DNA from: Candidatus Moraniibacteriota bacterium
Lineage (GTDB): Bacteria > Patescibacteriota > Minisyncoccia > Moranbacterales > UBA2206
Assembly: GCA_003483065.1 (NCBI GenBank)
Contig: DMWY01000007.1
Location: 10,452-74,451 of the forward strand
Length of the DNA stretch: 64,000 nt
Direction of reading: 5' to 3'
A model generated the notes under the pieces. That model did no database searches. It was not told where the DNA came from and was given only the letters and a program-made list of their open reading frames with translations. Position 1 is the first letter of the stretch. Each line of letters opens with the position of its first letter. Made by a program: the position numbers and the translations under genes. Below, in pieces: positions 2,839-62,080 of this stretch.

Positions 2839-3057
2839 TCAATGTGCAAAAGAGGCCATAATCCCATCAAGATCTTTTTCAATTTCTTGCCACTCAGTCT
2901 GTGTTAAATTTATAAGCCACGGGTCATCCTGATAACGAATAAAAGGTATAATCCTTTTTTCTCGTTGTTCATGGATGTATTGAGGCGTTACATCTTCTGA
3001 TTTAACACCATCTTCTATGGCAATAAGGTCCTTGAATAGTTTTTTCAGATTCGACAT
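2839..3057 (-). CDS. Hypothetical small protein (72 aa)
   Basis: Intact ORF between glyA and rmlA on the same strand; no recognisable motif. Confidence 0.3.
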   Translation of the reverse strand: MSNLKKLFKDLIAIEDGVKSEDVTPQYIHEQREKRIIPFIRYQDDPWLINLTQTEWQEIEKDLDGIMASFAH

Positions 3058-3148
3058 GTGTTTCCTCCTTATATGTTTTTATTATTTTAGTTGATCTGAA
3101 CCTCCTAGAAATATTTGTTTTAAAGAGCAATACGTTAAACGACTTAAA

Positions 3149-4393
3149 TTATTTTAAATTCTTGTAAAGTGGAAACTTTCTGCAAAGCTTAATAACTTCA
3201 TTATGAATTTTCTTCAATTCTTTTTTATCATCCTTATTTTCAATCGCATCCTTTATCCATTTGGAAATAATTTTTATCTCTTTTTCTTTCATTCCACGAG
3301 TTGTGATGGCTGGCACGCCAATGCGAATCCCGCTTGGGTCCATCGGATTTCTTGTGTCGTTGGGAATCATATTTTTGTTAAGTGAAATTCCAATTTCGTC
3401 CAAGGCTTCTTGGGCCTCTTTTCCGCTGACGCCTTTTGAACCCCAAACATCCACTAGCACCATATGATTGTCTGTTCCACCAAAACAAATGTCAAATCCA
3501 TATTTTTTCAGCTCTTGTTCCAAAATTTTGGCATTTTTTATAGTTTGCACAGCATATTTTTTGAAAGCTGGTTTCAAAGCTTCACCAAATGCCACCGCTT
3601 TGGCCGCAATATTGTTTTCATGTGGTCCACCTTGAAAACCAGGAAAAGTGGCTTTGTCAATTGCCTTGGCGAATTTTTCTTTGCACATAATCATTCCACC
3701 ACGCGGACCACGCAAAGTTTTGTGAGTTGTGGTGGTGACGATGTCAAAATATGGCACGGGATTTGGAAGGGCCTTGCCTGCAATTAGCCCAGCAATATGA
3801 GCAATGTCAAACATCGTGATCGCCCCCACTTTTTTGGCAATAGCTTGAAATTTTTTATAATCCAATTGTCTTGTATAAGCTGAAAATCCTGCCAAAATCA
3901 TTTTCGGTTTTTCTTTGACTGCCATTTTTTCCAATTCTCTATAGTCTATTTTTCCAAATGCATCTGTTTTATATCGCACAAAATTATATATCTTCGCGCT
4001 AAGCGTCACAGGATGACCATGCGTCAAATGTCCGCCGTGCGCCAAATCCATCCCCAAAACCTTGTCTCCTGGCTTCAAAACTGCGCTATAGGCGATCATA
4101 TTAGCCGGTGCGCCGGAAAGTGGCTGAACATTCACATGCTCCGCGCCAAAAAGCTTTTTTGCTCGAGCAATTGCCAAGCTTTCCACCACATCAGTATATT
4201 CTTGCCCGCCATAATAACGATGCCCCGGATAACCTTCACTATATTTATTAGTAAAAACAGATCCCAGCGCTTCAAGCACCGCCTCTGAAACATAATTTTC
4301 ACTGGCAATCATTTCCATACCCTCTTGTTGACGCTTCAATTCGCCCATCGTTGCTCTATAAACTTCCTTGTCTTGGTTTTTGATATTTTTCAT
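3149..4393 (-). CDS. glyA: Serine hydroxymethyltransferase
   Basis: MIASENYVSEAVLEALGSVFTNKYSEGYPGHRYYGG...HLTHGHP are classic SHMT motifs; 414 aa. Confidence 0.95.
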   Translation of the reverse strand: MKNIKNQDKEVYRATMGELKRQQEGMEMIASENYVSEAVLEALGSVFTNKYSEGYPGHRYYGGQEYTDVVESLAIARAKKLFGAEHVNVQPLSGAPANMIAYSAVLKPGDKVLGMDLAHGGHLTHGHPVTLSAKIYNFVRYKTDAFGKIDYRELEKMAVKEKPKMILAGFSAYTRQLDYKKFQAIAKKVGAITMFDIAHIAGLIAGKALPNPVPYFDIVTTTTHKTLRGPRGGMIMCKEKFAKAIDKATFPGFQGGPHENNIAAKAVAFGEALKPAFKKYAVQTIKNAKILEQELKKYGFDICFGGTDNHMVLVDVWGSKGVSGKEAQEALDEIGISLNKNMIPNDTRNPMDPSGIRIGVPAITTRGMKEKEIKIISKWIKDAIENKDDKKELKKIHNEVIKLCRKFPLYKNLK

Positions 4394-4465
4394 ATGTTAT
4401 CAATGACCAATGATCAGAGATCAAAGATCAAAATATAATGAATTAATTTTCTTACTTTTTATTGT

Positions 4466-6918: not shown

Positions 6919-7090
6919 ATATTTTATTTGGCTTAAAAAATTATCTATATTGACTTAATTCAACTAAATATTGCTAATTTCGCAAATATTATATACACTT
7001 AAATTATAGCTTGATTATAACAAAAAGAACCAAGAAACACAATCGAAATATTAGTATATTAGTAATTGATTAGTAATTAGTAAAGAACTC

Positions 7091-8155
7091 ATGAAAGAAC
7101 AAATCGAGAAAATTAGGCAGGAATATGAGGAAATTTCCACTGAGCTTAATAGCCCGGACATTTTTAGTGATGCCAAAAAAATGGGTGAGCTTGGCAAAAG
7201 ACAGGCTGAACTTTCAGAAACGATGGAGAATATAAACGAATTGGAAAGAATAGAAAAGTCGATGACAGAAAATGCCGTGATAATCAATTCTAATGAAGAA
7301 GATCCGGAAATGAAACAAATGGCTATGGAAGAAAATGTCACACTGAGCGCAAAAAAAGCCATCCTAGAAAAAGAATTAGAAAAAACTTTTCTCCCCAAAG
7401 ATCCCAATGATCATAAAAATGTTATCGTGGAAATTCGGGCTGGTGCCGGTGGAGATGAATCGGCTCTTTTTGCTGGAGATCTTTTTCAAATGTATGCTAA
7501 ATATGCGGAAAAAAATCGCTGGAGCACAGTACTTCTTAATTCTAATGTTATCGGAATTGGTGGATATAAGGAAGTTGTCTTTGAAATTAATGGTGCTGAT
7601 GTATATAGTAAAATGAAATATGAATCTGGTGTGCACCGCGTACAAAGAATCCCCGAAACGGAAAAAAATGGCCGAGTGCATACTTCCACCGCCACTGTGG
7701 CAGTTTTACCAGAAGCAGAAGAGGTGGACTTGAAGATAGAAGAAAAAGACATCAGAATTGACACTTTTTGCTCTTCTGGTCCCGGAGGACAGTCCGTCAA
7801 TACCACCAAATCAGCTGTGCGCATCACCCATATCCCAACTAATCTCATAGTTTCTTGCCAAGACGAAAAATCTCAAATTAAAAACAAAGAAAAGGCCATG
7901 AAAGTTTTGCGCTCTCGTCTTTTGCAATTGGAAGATGATCGAAAAGCCAAGGAATCAAGCGACGCGCGAAAATCTCAAATTGGCACGGGTGACCGCAGTG
8001 AAAAAATCCGCACTTACAATTTTCCACAAGACCGCATCACTGATCACCGCATAAAACAAAGCTGGAGTAATATTAAATCTATTTTGGAAGGAAATTTAGA
8101 TGAAATGATGGTTGTTCTGCAAGAGGAAGATGCAAAAAGAAAATTAGGGAAATAA
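7091..8155 (+). CDS. prfA: Peptide chain release factor 1
   Basis: GGQ motif ([23 protein letters not shown]) and the RF1 PxT-type domain; 354 aa. Confidence 0.95.
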
Positions 8156-9680: not shown

Positions 9681-9695
9681 AATAAGCCCTTTTTC

Positions 9696-9774
9696 ATTCG
9701 CATGGGCGCGTTCGCCCGCCTCGACTCGCGGAGACCGCTTGTCGACGCGAGGCGGGTAGCGCGCTATTCGCATG
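9696..9774. repeat. GC-rich palindromic insert (61 nt) flanked by the 9-bp direct repeat ATTCGCATG
   Basis: ATTCGCATG at 9696-9704 and 9766-9774 brackets a near-perfect hairpin (gcgcg..cccgcctcg..tcgac..gcgg aga ccgc..gtcga..cgaggcggg..gcgcgc). It is strongly GC-rich in an AT-rich genome. Confidence 0.4.
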
Positions 9775-9786
9775 CTTATTTTCAAA

Positions 9787-9816
9787 GCAAAAAATCGCGA
9801 TTTCGCGATTTTTTGC
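9787..9816. terminator. Bidirectional intrinsic terminator (perfect 30-nt palindrome)
   Basis: gcaaaaaatcgcga tt tcgcgattttttgc: A-tract, stem, T-tract on both strands; downstream of prmC. Confidence 0.65.
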
Positions 9817-9863
9817 TTTATCAATAATACCTAAGGCATTAAAGAACAATTATTTGAGAAAGA

Positions 9864-9959
9864 CTATTTCTTTTTCTTTTTTGTTGCTTTCTTTTTTGCT
9901 ACTTTCTTTGTAGCTTTTTTCTTTGTAGCTTTTTTAGCTGCTTTCTTTTTTGCTGCCAT
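9864..9959 (-). CDS. Tiny Lys/Ala-rich basic protein (31 aa, MAAKKKAAKKATKKKATKKVAKKKATKKKKK)
   Basis: Minus-strand ORF with the strong SD-like AGGAAGGTGA 9 nt upstream of ATG (9957-9959) and stop TAG (9864-9866). Composition resembles histone-H1-like / AKKA-repeat nucleoid proteins. Below the ORF-track size cutoff. Confidence 0.35.
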   Translation of the reverse strand: MAAKKKAAKKATKKKATKKVAKKKATKKKKK

Positions 9960-10354
9960 GTTGATTTCACCTTCCTTTCTATTTTTATTTTTTTAACTTT
10001 AAAATAATTTACATTTTTATTTTCGACCTTTTGTTTTCAAGAAATTTATTTTTCCGAATGTTATCGGATGAAAATATTTTTCTTAACTTAATTATACAAC
10101 ATATATTTTTTTTTGCAATAGAAAAAAGTTATCCACAGGTGATTTTTTAAAAAAATTTTAAAATTTTTTTAAAAAATAAAATTTCAAATCACAAAAACCA
10201 AATAACAAGTAATTTTTTAAAAATTATAATTTTATAAATTCGAAACTTATTTTTTGATTTTTAAATTTTAGATATTTTAAATTTATTTGGAAGTTGCGAT
10301 TTGAACTTTGTAATTTATGCCTTTACTACGCCCTGAATAAGCCATTTTGTCTAG

Positions 10355-10383
10355 TTGACGCCCGAGGCAGATAAAGTTAAAAT
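10355..10383 (+). promoter_or_regulatory. Sigma70-like promoter TTGACG-N17-TAAAAT
   Basis: -35 at 10355-10360, -10 at 10378-10383, about 70 nt upstream of the 10456 gene. Confidence 0.45.
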
Positions 10384-10455
10384 TTAATAGAAGAACAGCT
10401 TCAACGAAAGCACGTTAAAAACAATAAATATTAAATAGAAAGGAAGGTGAAAATT

Positions 10456-11040
10456 ATGGATAACCAAGAACTAGATGAAAAAACCACAGAAGAAGAATCT
10501 ACTCAAAATAAGATGAAAGAATGGTTAGAAGATAATATGCGAATTATCGTAAGCATTCTTATCGTAATTTTGATTGCTGGAGGAATTTATTCTTATTCTA
10601 AGCGAACAGAATCTCCACAGGTAGATGAACCGACTGTAGCCGTAGATGAAGAAAATAATTCTACTACGAAACAAGAAACCGTCAATGATAGCACTGTTTC
10701 TCAAGAAAAAGAAACTTCTTCAGTTGCTACAAGCCAAGAAACAGAAAACTCTCTCATTGAAACAGCAGCCAAGGGCGACAGTCAAACAAAGCTTGCCCGA
10801 AGAGCTCTTGCTGATTTTCTTGAAAAAAATCCTGATTCAGCACTCACAGCCGAACACAAAATATACATTGAAGATTATTTGCGCAAAAATTCAGGTCACA
10901 AGGGAAGAGTTTCTGTAGGCACATCAATAGAATTCTCAAAAGATTTGATTAAGGATGCAATCTCAAAATCTAAAAATCTCAACGAAAACCAATTAAAAAA
11001 TCTACATAAATATGCCGTTCGAGTACCGTCGTTGTCATAA
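10456..11040 (+). CDS. Hypothetical single-pass membrane protein
   Basis: ATG at 10456 preceded by AGGAAGGTGA (the ORF track's GTG at 10447 is less likely). TM helix IIVSILIVILIAGGIYSY, a Ser/Thr/Glu-rich linker and a C-terminal helical domain. Confidence 0.55.
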   Translation: MDNQELDEKTTEEESTQNKMKEWLEDNMRIIVSILIVILIAGGIYSYSKRTESPQVDEPTVAVDEENNSTTKQETVNDSTVSQEKETSSVATSQETENSLIETAAKGDSQTKLARRALADFLEKNPDSALTAEHKIYIEDYLRKNSGHKGRVSVGTSIEFSKDLIKDAISKSKNLNENQLKNLHKYAVRVPSLS

Positions 11041-12632: not shown

Positions 12633-14324
12633 TTATTTTCTCATCTTTTCCGTCACCCAAAACTCTCCAAAATATTTTCCTAATAAAATTCTAGTTTGCG
12701 AATCAACAGCTGGCATTGAACCAAGAAACGGCGCAATAATTGGCACCAAAGCCCATTGAATCAACATATAAAAATTGCGCCATTTTGAATATTTTTTAGG
12801 GCGTGGCGGCATCAGGAGAAAACTTAGCGACATTGAAACAACCAATCCACACATGGCCAGTGTCATAAGATAACGAGTAATAAATGGCAAATTATGCGCC
12901 AAAACAGACTGATTGAAATCATCACCCCCAAAAATAAGTGGCAACCACCCGAGTATTGCTAGAATAAAACTAGCTGTCGCCCAAGAGTGATGACCTTCCA
13001 ACATTTCAAAAGCGACAGAAAATTTCTTCCAAAAAGAAACTTTTTTATTTGGCCCAATTGCCCGCATAATAACTGGGAAATTTTCAATGCCATAGGCCCA
13101 GCGCCTTTTTTGCTTATATTGATTTTTGATAGTTTTCCAATATGTTTCCGCCAAAACTGCATCCAGCGAAATAGGAAGATGAATCGGAATCACTTTATAA
13201 TCACCGTCGTAGTAAGTAAAACATTTCCAATAGATAATTGAATCCTCACTGATCATATTGATTGGCCAAAAATTAACTTTGTACAAAGTATCAAATGGCT
13301 CACTATGAGAAGAAAAAGTCACCATACCCTCTGTTCTAGTGCTTTGGAAAATATGCCAAAAACTGGAGCCGGTCACGATCACCCGCACAAAAGCATTAGT
13401 GTCCCACAAATTATTGTGGTACATTGGCAAAGGCTGATAGCTTCTTTGTAGCCTTTTAGGATCAATTATATATTTATAGGTTAAAGCGGCAAAATATTGC
13501 TTGTGAGCCACACTATCGCAATCAAAATTAGAAAAAATAACTTTTTTGAAATCGATTTTTCTTTCTTCTAAATATTTTGCCAAAAATTTAGCTGCGAAAG
13601 TAGCATTTGATCCTTTAGCTTTCATTTCATCATCCTTGACTATATGCGTTGTAACGATAAAATCTCTAAAAACTCCTTGAAATTTATTTTTTAGATAATT
13701 AACCTTTTCCAATCTTTGTTTTTCTGGTTCGCGCTCTTCTGTGGCTAAAAGGATGATAAATTGATGATTTGGAAAATTTGAATCAGCGATTGCTTGAATA
13801 GCTGGCTCAATCACTTCAGCTGGTTCACTAGCTGTCGGAAGCATCACTACATGCACAATTTCTCGCCAATCTAAAATTTGGTCTTTTATTTTTGAAATCT
13901 CTTTCACTTCTTCCAAATATTCTAGACATTTTTCTATCTCTTTTCTGAAAATATTTTTTTCTTGTCTGGCGAGGTGACCACTTTCCTCTAGGCTTTTTTG
14001 CATATTCAAAATTCGATCGGATATAATCTCTCCGTATTTTTGAGGATTCATTATATTTTGACATCTTTCCCACCAATCAATCTCCTTTCCTTCTTTTAGT
14101 TTTTTGTATCCCGCCACTGAATAATACGCAATAAAAATCGTTCGATAAATCCAATAGATATCAAAGACTATAATAAAAATAGCCACATAAACAGGCAAGA
14201 GAAAAGAAAAAACAAACATGCCAATAAGCGTTGTCCAAGTCAAAATTCCTGGAATAACTTCCAGTATTCGCTGAACACGACGCTTTTTAGGATCTGTAGT
14301 TTTTGGATCGGGAAAATTAAACAT
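12633..14324 (-). CDS. Processive family-2 glycosyltransferase, membrane-embedded (cellulose/chitin/PNAG-synthase-like)
   Basis: N- and C-terminal TM segments, D,D-type motifs (FDCDSVAHKQYF) and QKRRWAYG (the QxxRW motif of processive GT2 synthases). Confidence 0.75.
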   Translation of the reverse strand: MFNFPDPKTTDPKKRRVQRILEVIPGILTWTTLIGMFVFSFLLPVYVAIFIIVFDIYWIYRTIFIAYYSVAGYKKLKEGKEIDWWERCQNIMNPQKYGEIISDRILNMQKSLEESGHLARQEKNIFRKEIEKCLEYLEEVKEISKIKDQILDWREIVHVVMLPTASEPAEVIEPAIQAIADSNFPNHQFIILLATEEREPEKQRLEKVNYLKNKFQGVFRDFIVTTHIVKDDEMKAKGSNATFAAKFLAKYLEERKIDFKKVIFSNFDCDSVAHKQYFAALTYKYIIDPKRLQRSYQPLPMYHNNLWDTNAFVRVIVTGSSFWHIFQSTRTEGMVTFSSHSEPFDTLYKVNFWPINMISEDSIIYWKCFTYYDGDYKVIPIHLPISLDAVLAETYWKTIKNQYKQKRRWAYGIENFPVIMRAIGPNKKVSFWKKFSVAFEMLEGHHSWATASFILAILGWLPLIFGGDDFNQSVLAHNLPFITRYLMTLAMCGLVVSMSLSFLLMPPRPKKYSKWRNFYMLIQWALVPIIAPFLGSMPAVDSQTRILLGKYFGEFWVTEKMRK

Positions 14325-14406
14325 ATTAGAGTTTATAAAGTTAGAAAGTTTTAAAGCTAAAAAGTTGGACTTTATGAACTTTATTAACTTGCTACTTTTA
14401 ACTTTT

Positions 14407-15964: not shown

Positions 15965-16016
15965 ATTAAATTATTCGTAGATTTGTATATTTGTATAGAT
16001 TAGTAATTCGTAGAGA

Positions 16017-16619
16017 CTATAACTTTCTCTGCGCGATAAATCTTTTTAGTCCGGAAATTTTATTGATCACCTCTTCGTGCGGACCTTCAAGAAATTCCAA
16101 AACAAATTTGTCCAGCATATTGAGGCGATATTTGAATTCGTCCATTGTCATCAAAACAAAATTAATTTCTTTGCCAATTTCCGCTTCCAGGCTACTCATG
16201 AGATTTTTGAGCCTAGCCTTGCTCACTGCGTCTCCCACAATTATCATATCCGCTTTACTCTTTGAATAATTGATAAACACTCCGCTTATCAAAGCTAATT
16301 TAACATTGCCAATTTTGGCTGTCTTGGAAAGACTCTGGCATTGCGGATAAACATTTGATTTAGCGATAAGATTTTTCAGTTCCGGATAAAAATTGAAATC
16401 TTGATTAAGCTGATAGAAAGTTTTTCCGGCCTTGGTTCGTTTTAGGATAAATTTTATATTCGCTAAGCTATTTAGCTCACTTTTACTTCTTCCAGCATTT
16501 AGCATATTTCTCGAAATAATATCCGAAAAACTAAAAACTGGTTCTGGGTTTTGCAGAAAAAAACGCAAAAGCCGTGCTCGCTCCTTGGAACCGAAAAGAA
16601 TTTCCAATATTTCTGACAT
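16017..16619 (-). CDS. Hypothetical protein with an N-terminal winged-helix-like segment
   Basis: MSEILEILFGSKERARLLRFFLQNPEP resembles a wHTH N-terminus; the remainder has no recognised family. Confidence 0.45.
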   Translation of the reverse strand: MSEILEILFGSKERARLLRFFLQNPEPVFSFSDIISRNMLNAGRSKSELNSLANIKFILKRTKAGKTFYQLNQDFNFYPELKNLIAKSNVYPQCQSLSKTAKIGNVKLALISGVFINYSKSKADMIIVGDAVSKARLKNLMSSLEAEIGKEINFVLMTMDEFKYRLNMLDKFVLEFLEGPHEEVINKISGLKRFIAQRKL

Positions 16620-28289: not shown

Positions 28290-28400
28290 CTGAAAAATTT
28301 TAAAGTCTAAATTTTAAATTTAAAATGAAATCTAAATGATTAAATTTTTAATTTGTCATTTAGTAACTTAAAATTGATTTATAATTTATAATTTAGCCTT

Positions 28401-28835: not shown

Positions 28836-28843
28836 AATTAGTT

Positions 28844-28913
28844 TATAAAGTTTATAAAGTTAGCAAGCTTATAAAGTATCGCCTAATAACTTTATAACCT
28901 TAAAAACTTTATA
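28844..28913. promoter_or_regulatory. Array of five TATAAAG heptamers (three direct, two inverted) upstream of mraZ; candidate MraZ operator or dcw promoter
   Basis: TATAAAG at 28844, 28853 and 28870; the complement CTTTATA at 28890 and 28907; spacings of 9 and 17 nt; begins 9 nt upstream of the mraZ start. Confidence 0.4.
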
Positions 28914-29080
28914 ACTTTCTAACTTAATAATTCCCCACTATTCCACACTTTTATATACTGCAAATCTATTTTACCCCACCACGCTTCATTGGTCAACACT
29001 TTTTTTCCATCTTTAAAACAATAAAAAAACGCCCATTTTAGGCGCTTTCTGAAAAAGTTATGCACAGGCTGTCCCCAATA

Positions 29081-30525: not shown

Positions 30526-30620
30526 AGCAACGAGATAGTCGGGACAAATTCCAGTGGAAAAGTTTCAAGCAATTGAAACTACCGATATATCTGACCTCGG
30601 CGGAGAGCCGGGGTTTTATG
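30526..30620 (+). ncRNA. Candidate small RNA (~95 nt) between a plus-strand promoter and an intrinsic terminator
   Basis: TTGACA (30492-30497), 16 nt, TATACT (30514-30519); then a 7-bp stem cctcggc/gccgggg (30595-30613) followed by TTTTATGTTTTT; no ORF between them. Class unknown. Confidence 0.25.
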
Positions 30621-31161
30621 TTTTTATAACCAATAATCCTTTTTTCTCCAATTTGGCATAATATTTAAATATTCTATCAATATTCTTTTTATCAAAATAA
30701 GATCGAGTGAGCCCAGCTACCATATCAGCCAATCTCACGCCAGCGCATTGTTCATCATTAACAGATCTAAGCTTTTTGGTTGTTATATTTTTTTCTCTTA
30801 AAATTTTCTTTATTTTTCTTTCATACCATTTTGGTTTTTTTCCATCTATAAAAATATTTTTGATATTCTTTTCTACTATCATATGCGTCAGACATTCTTC
30901 AAGTTTAATTTGTGGATTAACAGGATTTTTCACAACTGCCACTTTTGCTGAAAAATCAAGCTTCAGGGTTTCTTTTATAAATCCCTCTTTAATTTTCCAA
31001 GGAGTATTTTTCCAATGGAATTTATCAAGCCTTAAATTACTTTCAATTTCTTGTATCTTTTTTTCTACATTTTTATAATTTCTAACTTCTATATAAACCA
31101 AAGCGAATGTTGAATTATCTACTATCTTGTGAATACCTGATTCATCGATAAAAATCATCAT
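30616..31161 (-). CDS. DUF3800 domain protein
   Basis: Starts MMIFIDESG, with DEQCAGVRLADMVAG further in, as in DUF3800. Confidence 0.65.
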   Translation of the reverse strand: MMIFIDESGIHKIVDNSTFALVYIEVRNYKNVEKKIQEIESNLRLDKFHWKNTPWKIKEGFIKETLKLDFSAKVAVVKNPVNPQIKLEECLTHMIVEKNIKNIFIDGKKPKWYERKIKKILREKNITTKKLRSVNDEQCAGVRLADMVAGLTRSYFDKKNIDRIFKYYAKLEKKGLLVIKT

Positions 31162-31353
31162 AAAAATATTTTTTTATATTACGATGATATTATATCACTC
31201 TATGAAATTTTTGCAAGCCTTGAGCTGTGGATAATTTTTATCAAACAGGTATTTAAATACCTATCCACCCCTACATTTTACGCCCAAATAAAATAATTGG
31301 CAAAAAACAGGGGCTCTCTCGTTAAAAACGATAAGCCCCTAAAAAATAAAGTG

Positions 31354-33498: not shown

Positions 33499-33774
33499 AG
33501 GTTAGTTTTATGAGATTAATTAAGAGAGTTTCTCTACAAATTACAAATTAAGTACAAATATACAAATGTACAAATAAAATCAAAAATATAAATTTCATTC
33601 GTAAATTAGTATATTTGTATAAGATTCGTAATTCGTAGAAATTAAAAAACGCTGATTTAACAGCGAAAAGTCAATCGCAACTAATTCGTATATTAGCACT
33701 AAACGATTATTCTGTCAAAATGAATAAAGAAATCACGCGTTGGCTAGCGACTTCTTGTATGGTAAAGTGAAACT

Positions 33775-34329
33775 ATGCACGAAGAAGACAAAAATCTAAT
33801 CCAAGCTTTTTTTGCGGGTGATGACGAAGCCTACGAAAAACTTTTGAAAAAATACTTGAAATCCATTTATAATTTCTTGCGCACTTTCACAGCCGATTCG
33901 GACGTGCTAGATGATCTGACGCAAGAAACATTCATCAAGGCTTGGAAAAATTTGAAAAGTTTTGACACGGAGAAAAATTTCAAAACTTGGCTTTTTGCTA
34001 TTGCCAAAAATACTGTTTATGATTTTTTCAAAAAGAAAAAGACTATCCCATTCTCTAGCTTTCTCAATGAAGAGGGTGACAATGTTTTGGAAAACATCAA
34101 AACGGAAGATATTTTGCCTTTAGAAGTCTTGGAAAAAGCCGAGCGAGAAAAAGTTTTTGAAACAAAATTAGCCCAATTGCCGACTGATTATCATGCGCTT
34201 TTGATGTTGCGCTACAAGGAAGATTTTTCCCTACAAGAAATATCAGAAATTCTTGCTATTCCCTATAACACTATAAAAAGTCGCCATTTGCGAGCATTAA
34301 CTATCCTTAAAAAAATTCTAACTCAATAA
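33775..34329 (+). CDS. ECF-type RNA polymerase sigma factor (sigma-70 family)
   Basis: Region 2 (LTQETFIKAWKNLKSF, TWLFAIAKNTVYDF) and region 4 HTH (LQEISEILAIPYNTIKSRHLRAL). Confidence 0.85.
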   Translation: MHEEDKNLIQAFFAGDDEAYEKLLKKYLKSIYNFLRTFTADSDVLDDLTQETFIKAWKNLKSFDTEKNFKTWLFAIAKNTVYDFFKKKKTIPFSSFLNEEGDNVLENIKTEDILPLEVLEKAEREKVFETKLAQLPTDYHALLMLRYKEDFSLQEISEILAIPYNTIKSRHLRALTILKKILTQ

Positions 34330-40648: not shown

Positions 40649-40766
40649 TTGCCAGTAGCATTTCGGAGTGCTATAATATTTCATAGGGGTGCCATTTGGC
40701 GCTCCAAATTTATTAAATTCCGCGTGAGTCCGCGTTCATTCCGCGTGAGTCCGCGACGAATGTATT
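40649..40766 (+). promoter_or_regulatory. dnaX promoter (TTGCCA-N17-TATAAT) and leader with two 17-nt GC-rich direct repeats
   Basis: -35 at 40649-40654, -10 at 40672-40677; TTCCGCGTGAGTCCGCG at 40718-40734 and again at 40739-40755 (21-nt period); dnaX ATG at 40767. Confidence 0.45.
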
Positions 40767-42404
40767 ATGTCTGAAACACTTTATCGAAAATATCGACCGA
40801 AAAATTTTTCCGAAATTATCGGGCAAGCGCATATCGTGCGCACGCTTTCTAATTCGATAACAAATAGTCGCATTGGTCATGCTTATCTTTTCACCGGTCC
40901 ACGCGGGACTGGCAAAACTTCTATCGCAAGAATTTTAGCCAAAACAATTAATTGCGAAGATTTGAAAGACGCCATTACTTGCGAAAAATGTCCGTCCTGC
41001 AAAATTATCACTGAAAAAAAATCCTTAGACATAATTGAAATTGACGCTGCTTCCAACACTGGCGTGGACAACATCCGAGAACTTCGTGAAACTGTAGCGC
41101 TCTCCAATGCCTCATTGAAATTCAAAGTCTATATCATCGACGAAGTTCATATGCTTTCCACCGGCGCTTTCAACGCACTTTTGAAAACCCTCGAAGAACC
41201 ACCAGCTCACGTAGTTTTCATTCTGGCTACCACGGAAATTCACAAAGTTCCTCAGACTATCATTTCTCGTTGCCAAAGATTTGATTTTACTCGCTTGCCA
41301 ATTGGAAATATTATCGAAAAATTAACACTGATTACCAAGACAGAAAAAGTCAAAATTGAGAAAGAAGCACTTGAGATGATTGCCATTTCCGCCGAAGGAG
41401 GCATGAGAGACGCCGAATCACTTCTTGGACAAATTATTTCATTGGAAGACAAAAATATTACCGTCAAAGAAGTAGAAGAAATTCTAGGCACCGCTGACAA
41501 AAAAACCGCTGAAGAAATGGCTGAGATGATTGTGAAAAAAAATTCCTCAGGCGCGATTGCAAAAATCAATGAGCTTTTGGAAAATGGTTATGATTTGGAA
41601 ATTTTCAACAAATCCCTAGTTAACTATCTTCGCCAGATGATGATTGTGAAGATTGATCCGAGTCTCAAGAAATATTTTTCCGCCGAAATGACTACTGAGC
41701 GTTTGGAAAAAATGGTGAAACTTTGCGAAACGGCCGAACTACCCCAAATCATTTCTGCTATAAATTTATTCATGGAAGCCCAAAGCAAAATTTCAAGTTT
41801 CATCCTCCCCCAACTTCCCCTAGAAATTGCCGTCATCAAAGCCACTCATAAATTTCCAGTAGAAAAAGTTGAATATGAAATTGAAAAACCAGAAATCCCC
41901 CTTCCCCCTTCGGGGGAAGGTGCCCGAAGGGCGGATGAGGGGGAAACTAATTCAGACAGTAAAAACATAATTACTAAAACAAAAATAATAAAAGAAGAAA
42001 TTCAACCAGTAATAGTGGAAGAAAAATTTGTGGATAATGGCCAAGATTTGGACATGGAAAAAGTGCGTGCTAATTGGAAAAAACTACTTATTGATATCCG
42101 CCCCTTCAACCATTCCCTCTCTGCCTTGCTATGCAATTGCCAGCCAACCCAGGCAAAAAAGAACATTCTTACCCTCGCCACACCCTATGACTTTTATCGA
42201 GAAAGATTAAACGACGCCAACAATAAATTGACAGTTGAGCAAGTGTTTAGTAAGATATTAAAATCGACTATTCGGATTGAAATTGTGATCGACAAGAACC
42301 TAATCCCAAAAACCCAAGAAGAACAACCACCCAAAAAATCCGAACAAAACTCCCTCCTCACTGATGCATTGGAAATTATGGGCGGGAAAGTCGTGGAAGA
42401 GTAG
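40767..42404 (+). CDS. dnaX: DNA polymerase III subunit gamma/tau
   Basis: YRPKNFSEIIGQAHIVRTL, GPRGTGKTS, Zn module CEKCPSCK, and the SRC motif within IISRCQRF. Confidence 0.9.
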   Translation: MSETLYRKYRPKNFSEIIGQAHIVRTLSNSITNSRIGHAYLFTGPRGTGKTSIARILAKTINCEDLKDAITCEKCPSCKIITEKKSLDIIEIDAASNTGVDNIRELRETVALSNASLKFKVYIIDEVHMLSTGAFNALLKTLEEPPAHVVFILATTEIHKVPQTIISRCQRFDFTRLPIGNIIEKLTLITKTEKVKIEKEALEMIAISAEGGMRDAESLLGQIISLEDKNITVKEVEEILGTADKKTAEEMAEMIVKKNSSGAIAKINELLENGYDLEIFNKSLVNYLRQMMIVKIDPSLKKYFSAEMTTERLEKMVKLCETAELPQIISAINLFMEAQSKISSFILPQLPLEIAVIKATHKFPVEKVEYEIEKPEIPLPPSGEGARRADEGETNSDSKNIITKTKIIKEEIQPVIVEEKFVDNGQDLDMEKVRANWKKLLIDIRPFNHSLSALLCNCQPTQAKKNILTLATPYDFYRERLNDANNKLTVEQVFSKILKSTIRIEIVIDKNLIPKTQEEQPPKKSEQNSLLTDALEIMGGKVVEE

Positions 42405-60175: not shown

Positions 60176-61048
60176 CTAGGCTGTATTGATTCTTTGCTTG
60201 ATTGAGTTGAAAATTCTAGAAATTATATTAACCACAAAGAGAAGCATTAAAAATGCATTGGCATAAATAAAAATATTTCGCACAATCAAATTTTTCATAT
60301 CCGTTCCAAGTTGAAGTGCATGGAGAATCACAAAAATCCACAAAACTAAATTGAAAAAATGGATGAGTCGCCAGACACGAAAATTGATAAATTTTCGAAG
60401 ATATGAGCTGACTATTAATATCAACATCAAATAGAGAGAGATGATTCCCATTGCAAGATAAATTGGTTCTACGCCAACTTTAGTTGCGCTCTCTGAAAGA
60501 GGAAAAAATGGCACGAAAATATTAGCCAAATTAAAGGCGAGAAATTTGTCAAAAAGCAAACTCACTCCATGAAGCAAAGCAAACAGCAGAGCTTGCACTG
60601 AAATCCAACCGTGAATGTCCAAAGAATAAATGGGTGAAATTATTTTTCGAAGTAGTGGGTTTCGAATAGCAATTCCAAAAAATATCGAAAGATACAAAAG
60701 AAAAAATCCAATTAGCGCGCTGGCACGCGTGAGATACCACCCCCAAGGAACTTCGATTTCTGCTAAATTTGCGCTGTAGACCTCTGCGATTGATGGTGAA
60801 GCACTGTCTAGCGGGTCATTTCCAGTCATAACTTCTGCTCCATCTATTATCCCGTCCTTATCAGTGTCGGGATTTTTTGGCTCAGTAGTATAAATTTGTT
60901 TTTCCCCTTCATCGGTGAGCCCGTCCAGGTCGCTGTCCGTAATAACATCGTTTCCGTAGTCAACTTTTTTTTCTTCTGCTTTCGAAAAATTAAAATTAAA
61001 TATGAAAAAAAATAAAATTATTGCTAATATAAATATTTGTTTTTTCAT
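60176..61048 (-). CDS. Ferric-reductase-like transmembrane (heme-binding) protein with N-terminal secreted Ca-binding-type Asp repeats
   Basis: Signal peptide; DSDLDGLTDEGE and DTDKDGIIDG repeats; six TM helices with paired His (ALLHGVS, ILHALQLG), as in FRD/YedZ-like heme b domains. Confidence 0.5.
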   Translation of the reverse strand: MKKQIFILAIILFFFIFNFNFSKAEEKKVDYGNDVITDSDLDGLTDEGEKQIYTTEPKNPDTDKDGIIDGAEVMTGNDPLDSASPSIAEVYSANLAEIEVPWGWYLTRASALIGFFLLYLSIFFGIAIRNPLLRKIISPIYSLDIHGWISVQALLFALLHGVSLLFDKFLAFNLANIFVPFFPLSESATKVGVEPIYLAMGIISLYLMLILIVSSYLRKFINFRVWRLIHFFNLVLWIFVILHALQLGTDMKNLIVRNIFIYANAFLMLLFVVNIISRIFNSIKQRINTA

Positions 61049-61159
61049 TTTTTATAGTTTACTAAAGTACGAATCTAGCTAAATTACCTGCCTCGCCGGC
61101 AGGCGGGCGAATAAAGATAATAAGGATTAGTAATTTCGTTTAATTCGTATTTTCGTAAA

Positions 61160-62080
61160 TCAAATTATTTGTTTCATTTTTTCTGATAAATATACATTCC
61201 CTCGATAGTCCAAAAAAATTGCTGGGATTTTTTTCTGATTAGCATATTCCATTCCTCTTTTTTGCCCCATGAGATATAGCACCTTAGCTAAAACATCGGC
61301 TCTTTCGCAAATTTCAGCTTTCACCGTCACTGATTTCAAATCAAAAGAAAAATCATATGGACGCAAAGGATTAATTAAGTGATGATATTTTTCGCCACTA
61401 GTTTCCCATTTTTTTCTGGTTATACCCGAAGTCGCCACAGCTGAATTTTCTAAATTTAGAATAATCTTATCCTGCGAAATCCCTTCGACCTCTATCCCCC
61501 AACTTTCTTTACTTTCATTTTTCCCTTTGGCAAAAATGTCTCCGCCAGAATCAACCAAGAAATTTTGCCAGCCGGAGTTTTCGAGATACTGCGAAATCAA
61601 ATCAGTGATATAACCCTTGGCGATTCCGGAAAAATCCATTCTTTGTCCAAAAAAAACTTGGTCGTCTTTTATTTTCAAGTCATCCGTTAATTTATTTTTT
61701 GGAAAAATTTTGTCTTTTTCAATTTCCTTTTGGGAAAAAGTGTTAATCCTAAAATCTTTTTCATAGCCTACATTTTCCAAGATTTCCAGTATCCGCGGGT
61801 CGAAATAACCTCCACTTTCCTTGTAGTATTCCAATGATTTTTGTGCTAAAAACAGGATGTCTTCCGAGGCAGTTTTGAAAATTCCAAGATTTTCATTTAA
61901 TTTTGAAAGTTCACTTTTTTCAATAAACCGACTGAAAATTTTTTCTTTGTCTTGATATATTTTTTTTATCTCTTCCAGAATATCCTTAGCATCTTCAATA
62001 TTTTTTTCCTTATCAATAACCAAAAATATTTTTATCTCCGTGCCAAGCGCCCTAAATTCCTGCGAAAAAATTGAATTCAT
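61160..62080 (-). CDS. apbE: FAD:protein FMN transferase (ApbE family)
   Basis: FRALGTEIKIFLV (ApbE xxMGT motif region), DSGGD, and C-terminal ApbE blocks. Confidence 0.8.
   Translation of the reverse strand: MNSIFSQEFRALGTEIKIFLVIDKEKNIEDAKDILEEIKKIYQDKEKIFSRFIEKSELSKLNENLGIFKTASEDILFLAQKSLEYYKESGGYFDPRILEILENVGYEKDFRINTFSQKEIEKDKIFPKNKLTDDLKIKDDQVFFGQRMDFSGIAKGYITDLISQYLENSGWQNFLVDSGGDIFAKGKNESKESWGIEVEGISQDKIILNLENSAVATSGITRKKWETSGEKYHHLINPLRPYDFSFDLKSVTVKAEICERADVLAKVLYLMGQKRGMEYANQKKIPAIFLDYRGNVYLSEKMKQII

Follow-up and report, generated by a model that had tools for sequence, protein, structure and literature searches.

The REP/BIME/REPIN–RAYT systems of Proteobacteria combine short repeats with an enzyme, RAYT, which is a Y1 HUH transposase; the gene of the enzyme lies between repeats, which frequently abut the ends of open reading frames (ORFs) (PMC3733652). 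These repeats are intergenic, present in many copies and located inside transcription units; they often form inverted doublets with a short spacer, carry a GTAG tag at one end and lie in inverted orientation on the two sides of the associated enzyme gene (PMC3733652). These traits, with a less clear likeness in the case of the tag, recur in the arrays of ATTNGTA heptamers analysed here, for which 49 inverted pairs, often flush with ORF ends, were collected.

Further parallels are offered by MITEs and insertion sequences (Correia, RUP, Nezha), in which, as here, gene-less and gene-bearing copies have terminal inverted repeats in common, small gene-less derivatives far outnumber the gene-bearing copies, close relatives differ by presence or absence of a copy, and insertion occurs in operons, with co-transcription. 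Free-standing homing-endonuclease genes (phage intergenic HEGs; the PD-(D/E)XK enzyme I-Ssp6803I) resemble the present case in that a small nuclease ORF lies between tightly linked housekeeping genes; here this is seen at S14|S8 in locus L222 and at fabD|fabG in Sphingomonas, and presence is patchy among relatives. At the level of DNA recognition, omega (pSM19035), MetJ and ParG are small multimeric ribbon-helix-helix proteins that cooperatively read rows of 7–8-bp boxes, direct or inverted, and rows of this kind are also found here. Patescibacteria have very small genomes, and to our knowledge few mobile elements have been described in them.

The window, meaning the whole 64,000-nt stretch analysed, has a G+C content of 35%. 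An array consists of four to five ATTNGTA heptamers at offsets 0, 8, 16, 26/27 and 33/34, so that the start-to-start spacing of five units is 8, 8, 10/11 and 7; the end that finishes ...ATTNGTAG is referred to as the outer end. The copies in the window are as follows.

7042–7082, plus strand: solo array at prfA, with a degenerate first unit ATCGAAA (7042–7048) followed by four ATTAGTA units starting at 7050, 7058, 7069 and 7076
15973–16016, plus strand: solo five-unit array at rmuC, with units starting at 15973, 15981, 15989, 15999 and 16006, then GAGA
33533–33575, minus strand: left arm of the typA pair, five ATTTGTA units on the minus strand, overlooked in the preliminary description
33576–33596, no strand: spacer (loop), the sequence between the two arms of the typA pair
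33597–33639, plus strand: right arm of the typA pair, with units starting at 33597, 33605, 33613, 33624 and 33631, then GA
61049–61159, no strand: probable decayed pair, assigned with low confidence, with units and a central hairpin; four-unit match of 17/24

Inspection of the sequence confirms the three sites of the preliminary description, as well as the gene context that it named (prfA, rmuC, typA/ECF-type sigma); its count has to be raised by a fourth perfect array, 33535–33575 on the minus strand. Perfect four-unit arrays thus number four in the window (24/24 each), and the next best score of the four-unit core is at most 18/24. Over five units, three copies reach 30/30 specified bases (15973–16012 and 33597–33637 on the plus strand, 33535–33575 on the minus strand), and the prfA copy (7042–7082, plus strand) reaches 27/30 because its first unit is degenerate. 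The preliminary description had proposed a comparison with chance frequency, which the arrays withstand: twenty first-order Markov simulations of the window give a mean of 0.05 matches that score at least 19/24, and not one that reaches 21/24. The single heptamer ATTNGTA occurs 61 times, against 42.9 ± 6.6 in shuffles, an excess due entirely to the array clusters.

The outer end of the 7042 array stops 8 nt short of the prfA ATG (7091). The 15973 array fills the 52-nt gap from the stop codon of ORF 16017–16619 (minus strand) to the start of rmuC; its outer (GTAG) end is flush with that stop codon (16017–16019, 4 nt beyond the array) and its inner end lies 11 nt from the rmuC ATG (15961, minus strand). 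ORF 16017–16619 is a real gene, with a homolog in locus L032 (E = 1.6e-20), and the identity of RmuC is given by its Pfam match. The pair 33533–33639 is placed between the divergent typA and ECF-type sigma genes, with the outer end of the left arm facing typA, 35–36 nt from its ATG (33498), and that of the right arm (33597–33639) facing the sigma gene, ~135 nt from its ATG (33775); the copies at 33535 and 33597 make up an inverted repeat of 48 nt, whose arms have 79% complementarity and are separated by 11 nt. At the decayed locus, TACTAAA/TACGAAT units (61060–61074) adjoin the start of gene 60176–61048 (minus strand), a G+C-rich hairpin occupies the middle of 61049–61159, and ATTAGTA, ATTCGTA and TTTCGTA at 61126–61157 end 2 nt from the stop of gene 61160–62080 (minus strand).

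The distribution of the motif extends far beyond this genome. A search pattern of four core units with 21 specified bases matched at least 120 stretches in a collection of species-representative genomes, compared with a chance expectation, by our own base-composition estimate, of at most a few tens of matches even at 35% G+C throughout. Among the matches listed, ~78 titles bear the label of a Patescibacteria lineage (Moran-, Falkow-, Yanofsky-, Saccharibacteria and others) and ~28 as Bacteroidota, the remainder carrying doubtful or unclassified labels; all taxon labels are those of the depositors. At least 120 stretches of other genomes, the majority bearing Patescibacteria or Bacteroidota labels, thus share the core, and the suggested restriction to one lineage does not hold. 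Of the readings proposed in the preliminary description, the small dispersed repeat was the right one. The exact matches analysed number 166, including the four of the window; the locus set is biased towards perfect matches to the search pattern, and genes in the fetched loci were delimited with a simple longest-ORF caller. One contig labelled ‘uncultured Gammaproteobacteria’ (L024) contains, at 3028–3492, several ATTNGTA pairs and a LAGLIDADG endonuclease ORF; we suspect that the taxon labels of L024 and of similar co-assembled MAGs are unreliable.

Conservation also reaches bases outside the pattern, namely the GTA of the last unit (~83%) and a G at +1 (54%); the GTAG end tag belongs to the heptad and is not a separate unpaired tag. 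Beyond the last unit and this G, the aligned matches have no conserved sequence in either flank. The N position prefers C > T > A >> G, and the fifth unit is confined to some lineages, that of the window included. N tends to be uniform within an array, with four identical N in 52 of 126 arrays compared with 17 expected, a figure to which differences between genomes may contribute. Viral contigs gave one match in 2.9 million and no relative of the nuclease described below, and a phage origin was rejected on these grounds. Rfam at gathering thresholds finds a DUF3800-II motif and a tRNA in the window and nothing on the arrays; below threshold, the typA pair receives microRNA-like chance matches only. 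The literature search found no paper on the exact array sequences and nothing relevant on promoters or repeats of Patescibacteria.

As regards position, 154 of the 166 matches lie outside predicted genes. The two ends of an array differ: when a start codon lies within 400 nt, it is at most 20 nt away in 43 of 97 cases at the outer GTAG end and in 8 of 74 at the other end, and when the neighbour is on the opposite strand, its stop codon lies 2–5 nt from the outer end in 29 of 54 cases. Orientation is nearly random; of the solo arrays located between co-directional genes, 28 have the direction of their neighbours and 21 the opposite one, and 54 of the 121 arrays that have a called gene on each side face a 3′ end. 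The proteins encoded downstream are unrelated housekeeping products of diverse Pfam families (64 proteins, 61 clusters).

These data bear on the idea, raised in the preliminary description, of a promoter or UP-element; such an element might be read by an alternative sigma factor. Many arrays do end 5–10 nt ahead of a start codon, and one (L052) directly follows a terminator-like hairpin; TACGAATA equals the streptococcal ComX cin-box, and TAnATTTG would fit the Bacteroidetes −7 box when N = T. However, the arrays are oriented almost at random to genes and often face a 3′ end, they lack a conserved −35- or −10-like flank, they occur inside ribosomal-protein operons and, as pairs, about equally in divergent and convergent gaps, and they are nearly absent from viral contigs. 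N is variable, so that neither the cin-box nor the −7 box consensus holds in general. Conventional promoters exist besides, such as the TTGACA-17-TAATAT (33718–33690) located separately upstream of the typA pair. Orientation, variable N and unconserved flanks led to the rejection of every promoter type considered (sigma-70, Bacteroidetes −33/−7, ECF −10 CGT and ComX cin-box), and we regard a promoter function as very improbable. An intrinsic terminator was likewise discarded, the arms being A+T-rich without a T-run and the only terminator-like site (33665–33650) lying outside the pair. The possibility of a regulator binding site survives in part: a protein-recognition array is plausible, but the operator of a regulon is not, because the adjoining genes are unrelated and arrays are lost or swapped at orthologous sites. 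Taken together, orientation, pairing, flush ORF ends and unrelated neighbours rule out a promoter, a 5′-UTR signal or a regulon operator as the general explanation.

Pairing is strictly ordered. Among 209 arrays, all 49 pairs are head-to-head, with the outer ends outward and spacers of −2 to 117 nt, and none is tail-to-tail; pairs are found in co-directional, divergent and convergent gaps, and about half of all arrays are solo. The paired arms could act at the RNA level, as an intercistronic or UTR hairpin for mRNA processing, stability or translational coupling, solo arms being remnants. The typA pair is probably transcribed, as a sigma-70-like promoter lies upstream of it; its folding energy as RNA is −42.8 kcal/mol (z = −9.8) for the typA sense and −27.3 kcal/mol for the other, and that of the S3|L16 element of L086 is −40.1 kcal/mol; the base of the stem abuts the upstream stop and downstream start codons, and different lineages hold different repeat families with the same palindromic layout at S3|L16. 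Against this, complementarity between the two arms is not maintained at N, with 96 of 196 positions identical, compared with 76 expected; co-directional pairs show 5 sense wobble pairs against 10 antisense, along with 38 other mismatches, and N displays neither a compensatory nor a wobble pattern. The arms are thus conserved as sequence and not as stem. Moreover, pairs also occupy divergent gaps, short operon gaps accept either orientation, so that the RNA sequence differs from case to case, and the solo half of the arrays has no meaningful fold (0 kcal/mol at 15965–16020, minus strand; −5.4 kcal/mol at 7040–7095, no better than shuffles). A role primarily in RNA appears improbable.

Comparison of orthologous junctions, also proposed in the preliminary description, gives a mixed picture, with arrays kept in some relatives and lost or swapped in others. 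Upstream of prfA, the window and L210 (90% PrfA identity) carry an identical A-type array although the upstream flank of L210 has diverged; L208 (96%) has in its place a C-type array with a shorter gap, of 3 nt, and L209 (97%) and L211 (84%) have none. At the epimerase|SHMT junction, L208 contains a 92-nt ATTNGTA pair, L209 a 3-nt spacer and the window a different five-unit repeat family, of TTGATC type. This TTGATC/TGATC array (4394–4465) is flush with the SHMT start codon. At typA, a pair is also present in L124 (98% TypA identity); its left arm, the counterpart of 33533–33575, departs from that of the window at all five N and in the gap, and the spacer differs too, while the surrounding 90 nt are ~99% identical to the window; the spacer 33576–33596 and the innermost unit of the 33597–33639 arm are replaced by AAAAA. 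The sequences compared suggest that the arm was replaced or underwent gene conversion. In other orthologous loci, typA is preceded by a solo arm at 8 nt from its ATG (L126), by a degenerate pair (L125) or by no array (L127). The S3|L16 junction holds an ATTNGTA pair in L086 and L135, a decayed one in L131 and none in L128, and palindromic arrays of other short units in other lineages. Whole elements with shared loops are repeated within one genome in L086 and L024; in L086, three ~105-nt copies with a common loop separate ribosomal-protein genes, within L22|S3|L16 and ahead of S8. A test of 48 pairs for target-site duplication found no excess of 2–8-nt direct repeats at offsets 0–4, and no transposition intermediate came to light.

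Such turnover is to be weighed against the possibility of a host cis-element, in which arrays would bind a host protein, marking or insulating gene boundaries or tuning expression, and would be kept by selection and not by mobility; the binder could possibly be a domesticated GxxExxY protein (see below) or a ribbon-helix-helix-type repressor reading 7–8-bp tandem boxes, a spacing that presumably matches the omega, MetJ and ParG operators. The perfect conservation of 24–30 positions with N and gap positions free, the precise placement of the outer end against start and stop codons, and the prfA array shared with L210 across a diverged flank all argue for this explanation; scores in the window are either perfect or background, the decayed locus apart, which also fits purifying selection for a host function. 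Yet close relatives have no array, or another repeat family, at the same gene; the neighbouring genes have no common function; convergent gaps and ribosomal-protein operons contain pairs; single genomes (L086, L024) carry several copies of whole elements with a common loop; and an arm appears to have been replaced between genomes at 98% TypA identity. A host cis-element is therefore considered unlikely as the main explanation. A host function, such as boundary marking or stop–start hairpins for translational coupling, could coexist with a selfish one.

The interior of the longest pairs provides the link to an enzyme. Adjacent head-to-head pairs with a spacer above 300 nt exist in L114, L107 and L084 only, and each encloses an ORF of ~125 aa that matches TIGR04256 ‘GxxExxY protein’ and Pfam PF13366 (PDDEXK_3); one of these loci is labelled Chryseobacterium, and its ORF is frameshifted. 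As an independent test, protein similarity served as the sole criterion for choosing three GxxExxY proteins, whose loci were then fetched. In L228, the gene lies between two 24/24 arms; in L222, 24/24 arms surround GxxExxY and a 79-aa ORF between the S14 and S8 ribosomal-protein genes, with gene-less short pairs at L5|S14 and S8|L6; in L212, the flanking arms are degenerate. A partial GxxExxY match flanked by degenerate arms was also found in L113 and, this locus excepted, a family profile search detected no other GxxExxY gene in the window or in the remaining fetched loci. Arms hence bracket a GxxExxY gene in five of five long-loop cases that are clear, including two loci reached solely through the protein, and the geometry is that of gene-less pairs, with inner ends facing the gene and outer ends flush with the host stop or start. 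The locus set contains no long-loop pair enclosing any other gene, and no Y1 transposase gene was seen between arms at the bracketed loci. The link is based on five loci with clear arms, two with degenerate arms and four suggestive loci from distant relatives; the Sphingomonas locus described below shows no arrays. Each GxxExxY protein looked up has a single genomic context, a finding equally compatible with a resident or domesticated gene and with an active transposon.

More distant relatives are bounded by other repeats. Four TAATCC-type units lie on each side of the Persicobacter gene; the Treponema gene is flanked by CGGATTCG units, as an inverted CACGGATTCG; the Gemmatirosa gene is enclosed by (GCGGATnnn)x3, loop, (ATCCGCnnn)x3; in Fusobacteria the flanking 21-nt repeats are direct and not inverted; and the Sphingomonas gene is so tightly placed between fabD and fabG that on one side no space is left for arrays. 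A search of plasmids for ATTNGTA-flanked GxxExxY genes gave five distant relatives only. In a CPR ribosomal-protein operon, the S3|L16 junction of L134 carries arrays of ATTCGGAT/ATCCGAAT units. These units, together with CGGATTCG of Treponema and GCGGAT of Gemmatirosa, look like variants of one core ATYCG (L237, L238), a resemblance that hints at possible co-evolving specificities.

As for the protein itself, the D, E and K of the PD-(D/E)XK motif (D...ExK) are invariant in 48 of 48 aligned GxxExxY sequences, and an AlphaFold2 model (mean pLDDT 92.6) has its best fold matches in Cas4 and lambda-exonuclease-type nucleases. Judged from alignment and model, it looks like an intact nuclease. No solved structure related to it by sequence was found, the Pfam entry for PF13366 gives its function as unknown, and so did a 2012 survey of the PD-(D/E)XK superfamily, which noted multiple transfers of the family between divisions. 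The literature search on ‘GxxExxY’ found no paper linking it to repeats.

We consider, with moderate confidence, that the arrays are arms of intergenic inverted-repeat elements whose full-length copies enclose a GxxExxY nuclease gene; the family seems to be previously undescribed and common in Patescibacteria and Bacteroidota. A full-length element would comprise an arm (TACNAAT), the ~125-aa GxxExxY/PDDEXK_3 gene and an arm (ATTNGTA), with the outer GTAG ends flush against host stop and start codons. Most copies would have lost the nuclease gene, leaving head-to-head pairs of 63–180 bp, such as 33533–33639, or solo arms, such as 7042–7082 and 15973–16016 in the window. The simplest account of the window is that it holds gene-less derivatives only, namely one pair, two solo arms and one decayed pair. 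The row of heptads may serve as a recognition platform for a multimer of the nuclease, presumably multimeric because the four boxes are set at 7–8 and 10–11 bp, and the nuclease, acting in trans, may drive arm copying, gene conversion, gain and loss. The elements would lie within transcription units, where paired arms could fold into a ~30-bp A+U-rich hairpin bringing the upstream stop and the downstream start together; we infer that any effect on host gene expression is secondary. The inner side would be variable, and the outer end flush with host ORFs, because the inner side is the decaying interior of the element. Reading the arrays as element arms explains their indifference to the direction of transcription, their unrelated neighbours, their presence inside conserved operons, their rapid gain, loss and swapping, and their occurrence in two phyla.

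Despite the likenesses listed at the outset, the array system is not a member of the REP/RAYT family, because its arms are not stem-loops and its enzyme belongs to a different superfamily. A REP is a 20–40-bp G+C-rich stem-loop, whereas the arm is made of direct heptads without self-complementarity; RAYT is a Y1 transposase, whereas the enzyme here is PD-(D/E)XK GxxExxY (TIGR04256/PF13366); and the hosts are Patescibacteria and Bacteroidota, with one repeat sequence conserved across phyla. MITEs differ in that no target-site duplication was found here (48 pairs), that the encoded protein is no recognised transposase, that the terminal repeats are arrays of sub-repeats with a very variable spacer between arms, and that arms persist and turn over individually. 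Homing-endonuclease genes, for their part, are not bounded by inverted repeat arrays and do not leave hundreds of gene-less repeats at unrelated sites. The omega, MetJ and ParG operators are confined to a few specific promoters of one regulon or plasmid, have unrelated box sequences and are read by ribbon-helix-helix proteins, none of which is implicated here.

By analogy, and tentatively, since we hold this wider claim to be somewhat less than an even chance, ATTNGTA arrays and GxxExxY might constitute a new class comparable to REPIN/RAYT, in which a PD-(D/E)XK nuclease would recognise the heptad rows and which would be active or domesticated across Patescibacteria, Bacteroidota and, with other units, more phyla. 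If so, a function would be provided for PF13366/TIGR04256, a widespread family of small nucleases of unknown function, and the fast-evolving palindromic spacers in the compact operons of candidate-phyla bacteria would be explained. The elements would also be a major source of small-scale genome variation in Patescibacteria and a second, mechanistically different example of the REP/RAYT layout, where repeats surround the gene of the enzyme that presumably maintains them. In practice, the arrays should not be annotated as promoters and may serve as strain-level markers in metagenomes.

Other features were noted in the window and its relatives. Inverted arrays of a second family, in which AAAGTT units face AACTTT units, occupy 14325–14406 and 28836–28935, filling the gap upstream of gene 12633–14324 and lying upstream of mraZ, ~5 nt from each ATG; the family is also present at S3|L16 in L136 and beside an ATTTGTA arm in L046, and its units resemble the Mollicutes MraZ box, AAAGTG. 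An A+T-rich dispersed repeat of ~75 nt (taaattttaaatttaaaat...ttaatttgtcatttagtaa...) is found between mraW and mraZ (~28300–28375); in the relative L208 the taaattttaaatttaaaat...ttaatttgtcatttagtaa repeat sits between prfA and tsaE instead (10712–10792).

Next to the typA pair, 33642–33718 (minus strand) contains a strong sigma-70-like TTGACA-17-TAATAT with a TG extension, followed ~20 nt on by a terminator-like hairpin and T6; this promoter–hairpin unit, upstream of the pair, is ~99% conserved in L124 and could be a tiny transcript or a leader attenuator. Read by eye, 33740–33777 contains TTGGCT-17-TAAAGT and then 6 nt to the ATG of the ECF-type sigma gene, whose mRNA appears leaderless. 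The DUF3800-II RNA motif (RF02961, 75 bits) at 30527–30596 (plus strand) adjoins a DUF3800 gene at 30616–31161 (minus strand). A possible origin region is the 766-nt A+T-rich gap at 9681–10446, which contains a DnaA-box-like TTATCCACA (~10129) and tandem repeats of 12/15 nt (9858–9993); a second TGTGGATAA is found near 31225. Finally, attccgcgtgagtccgcg is present in two direct copies at ~40711–40760, upstream of a dnaX-like gene at 40767.
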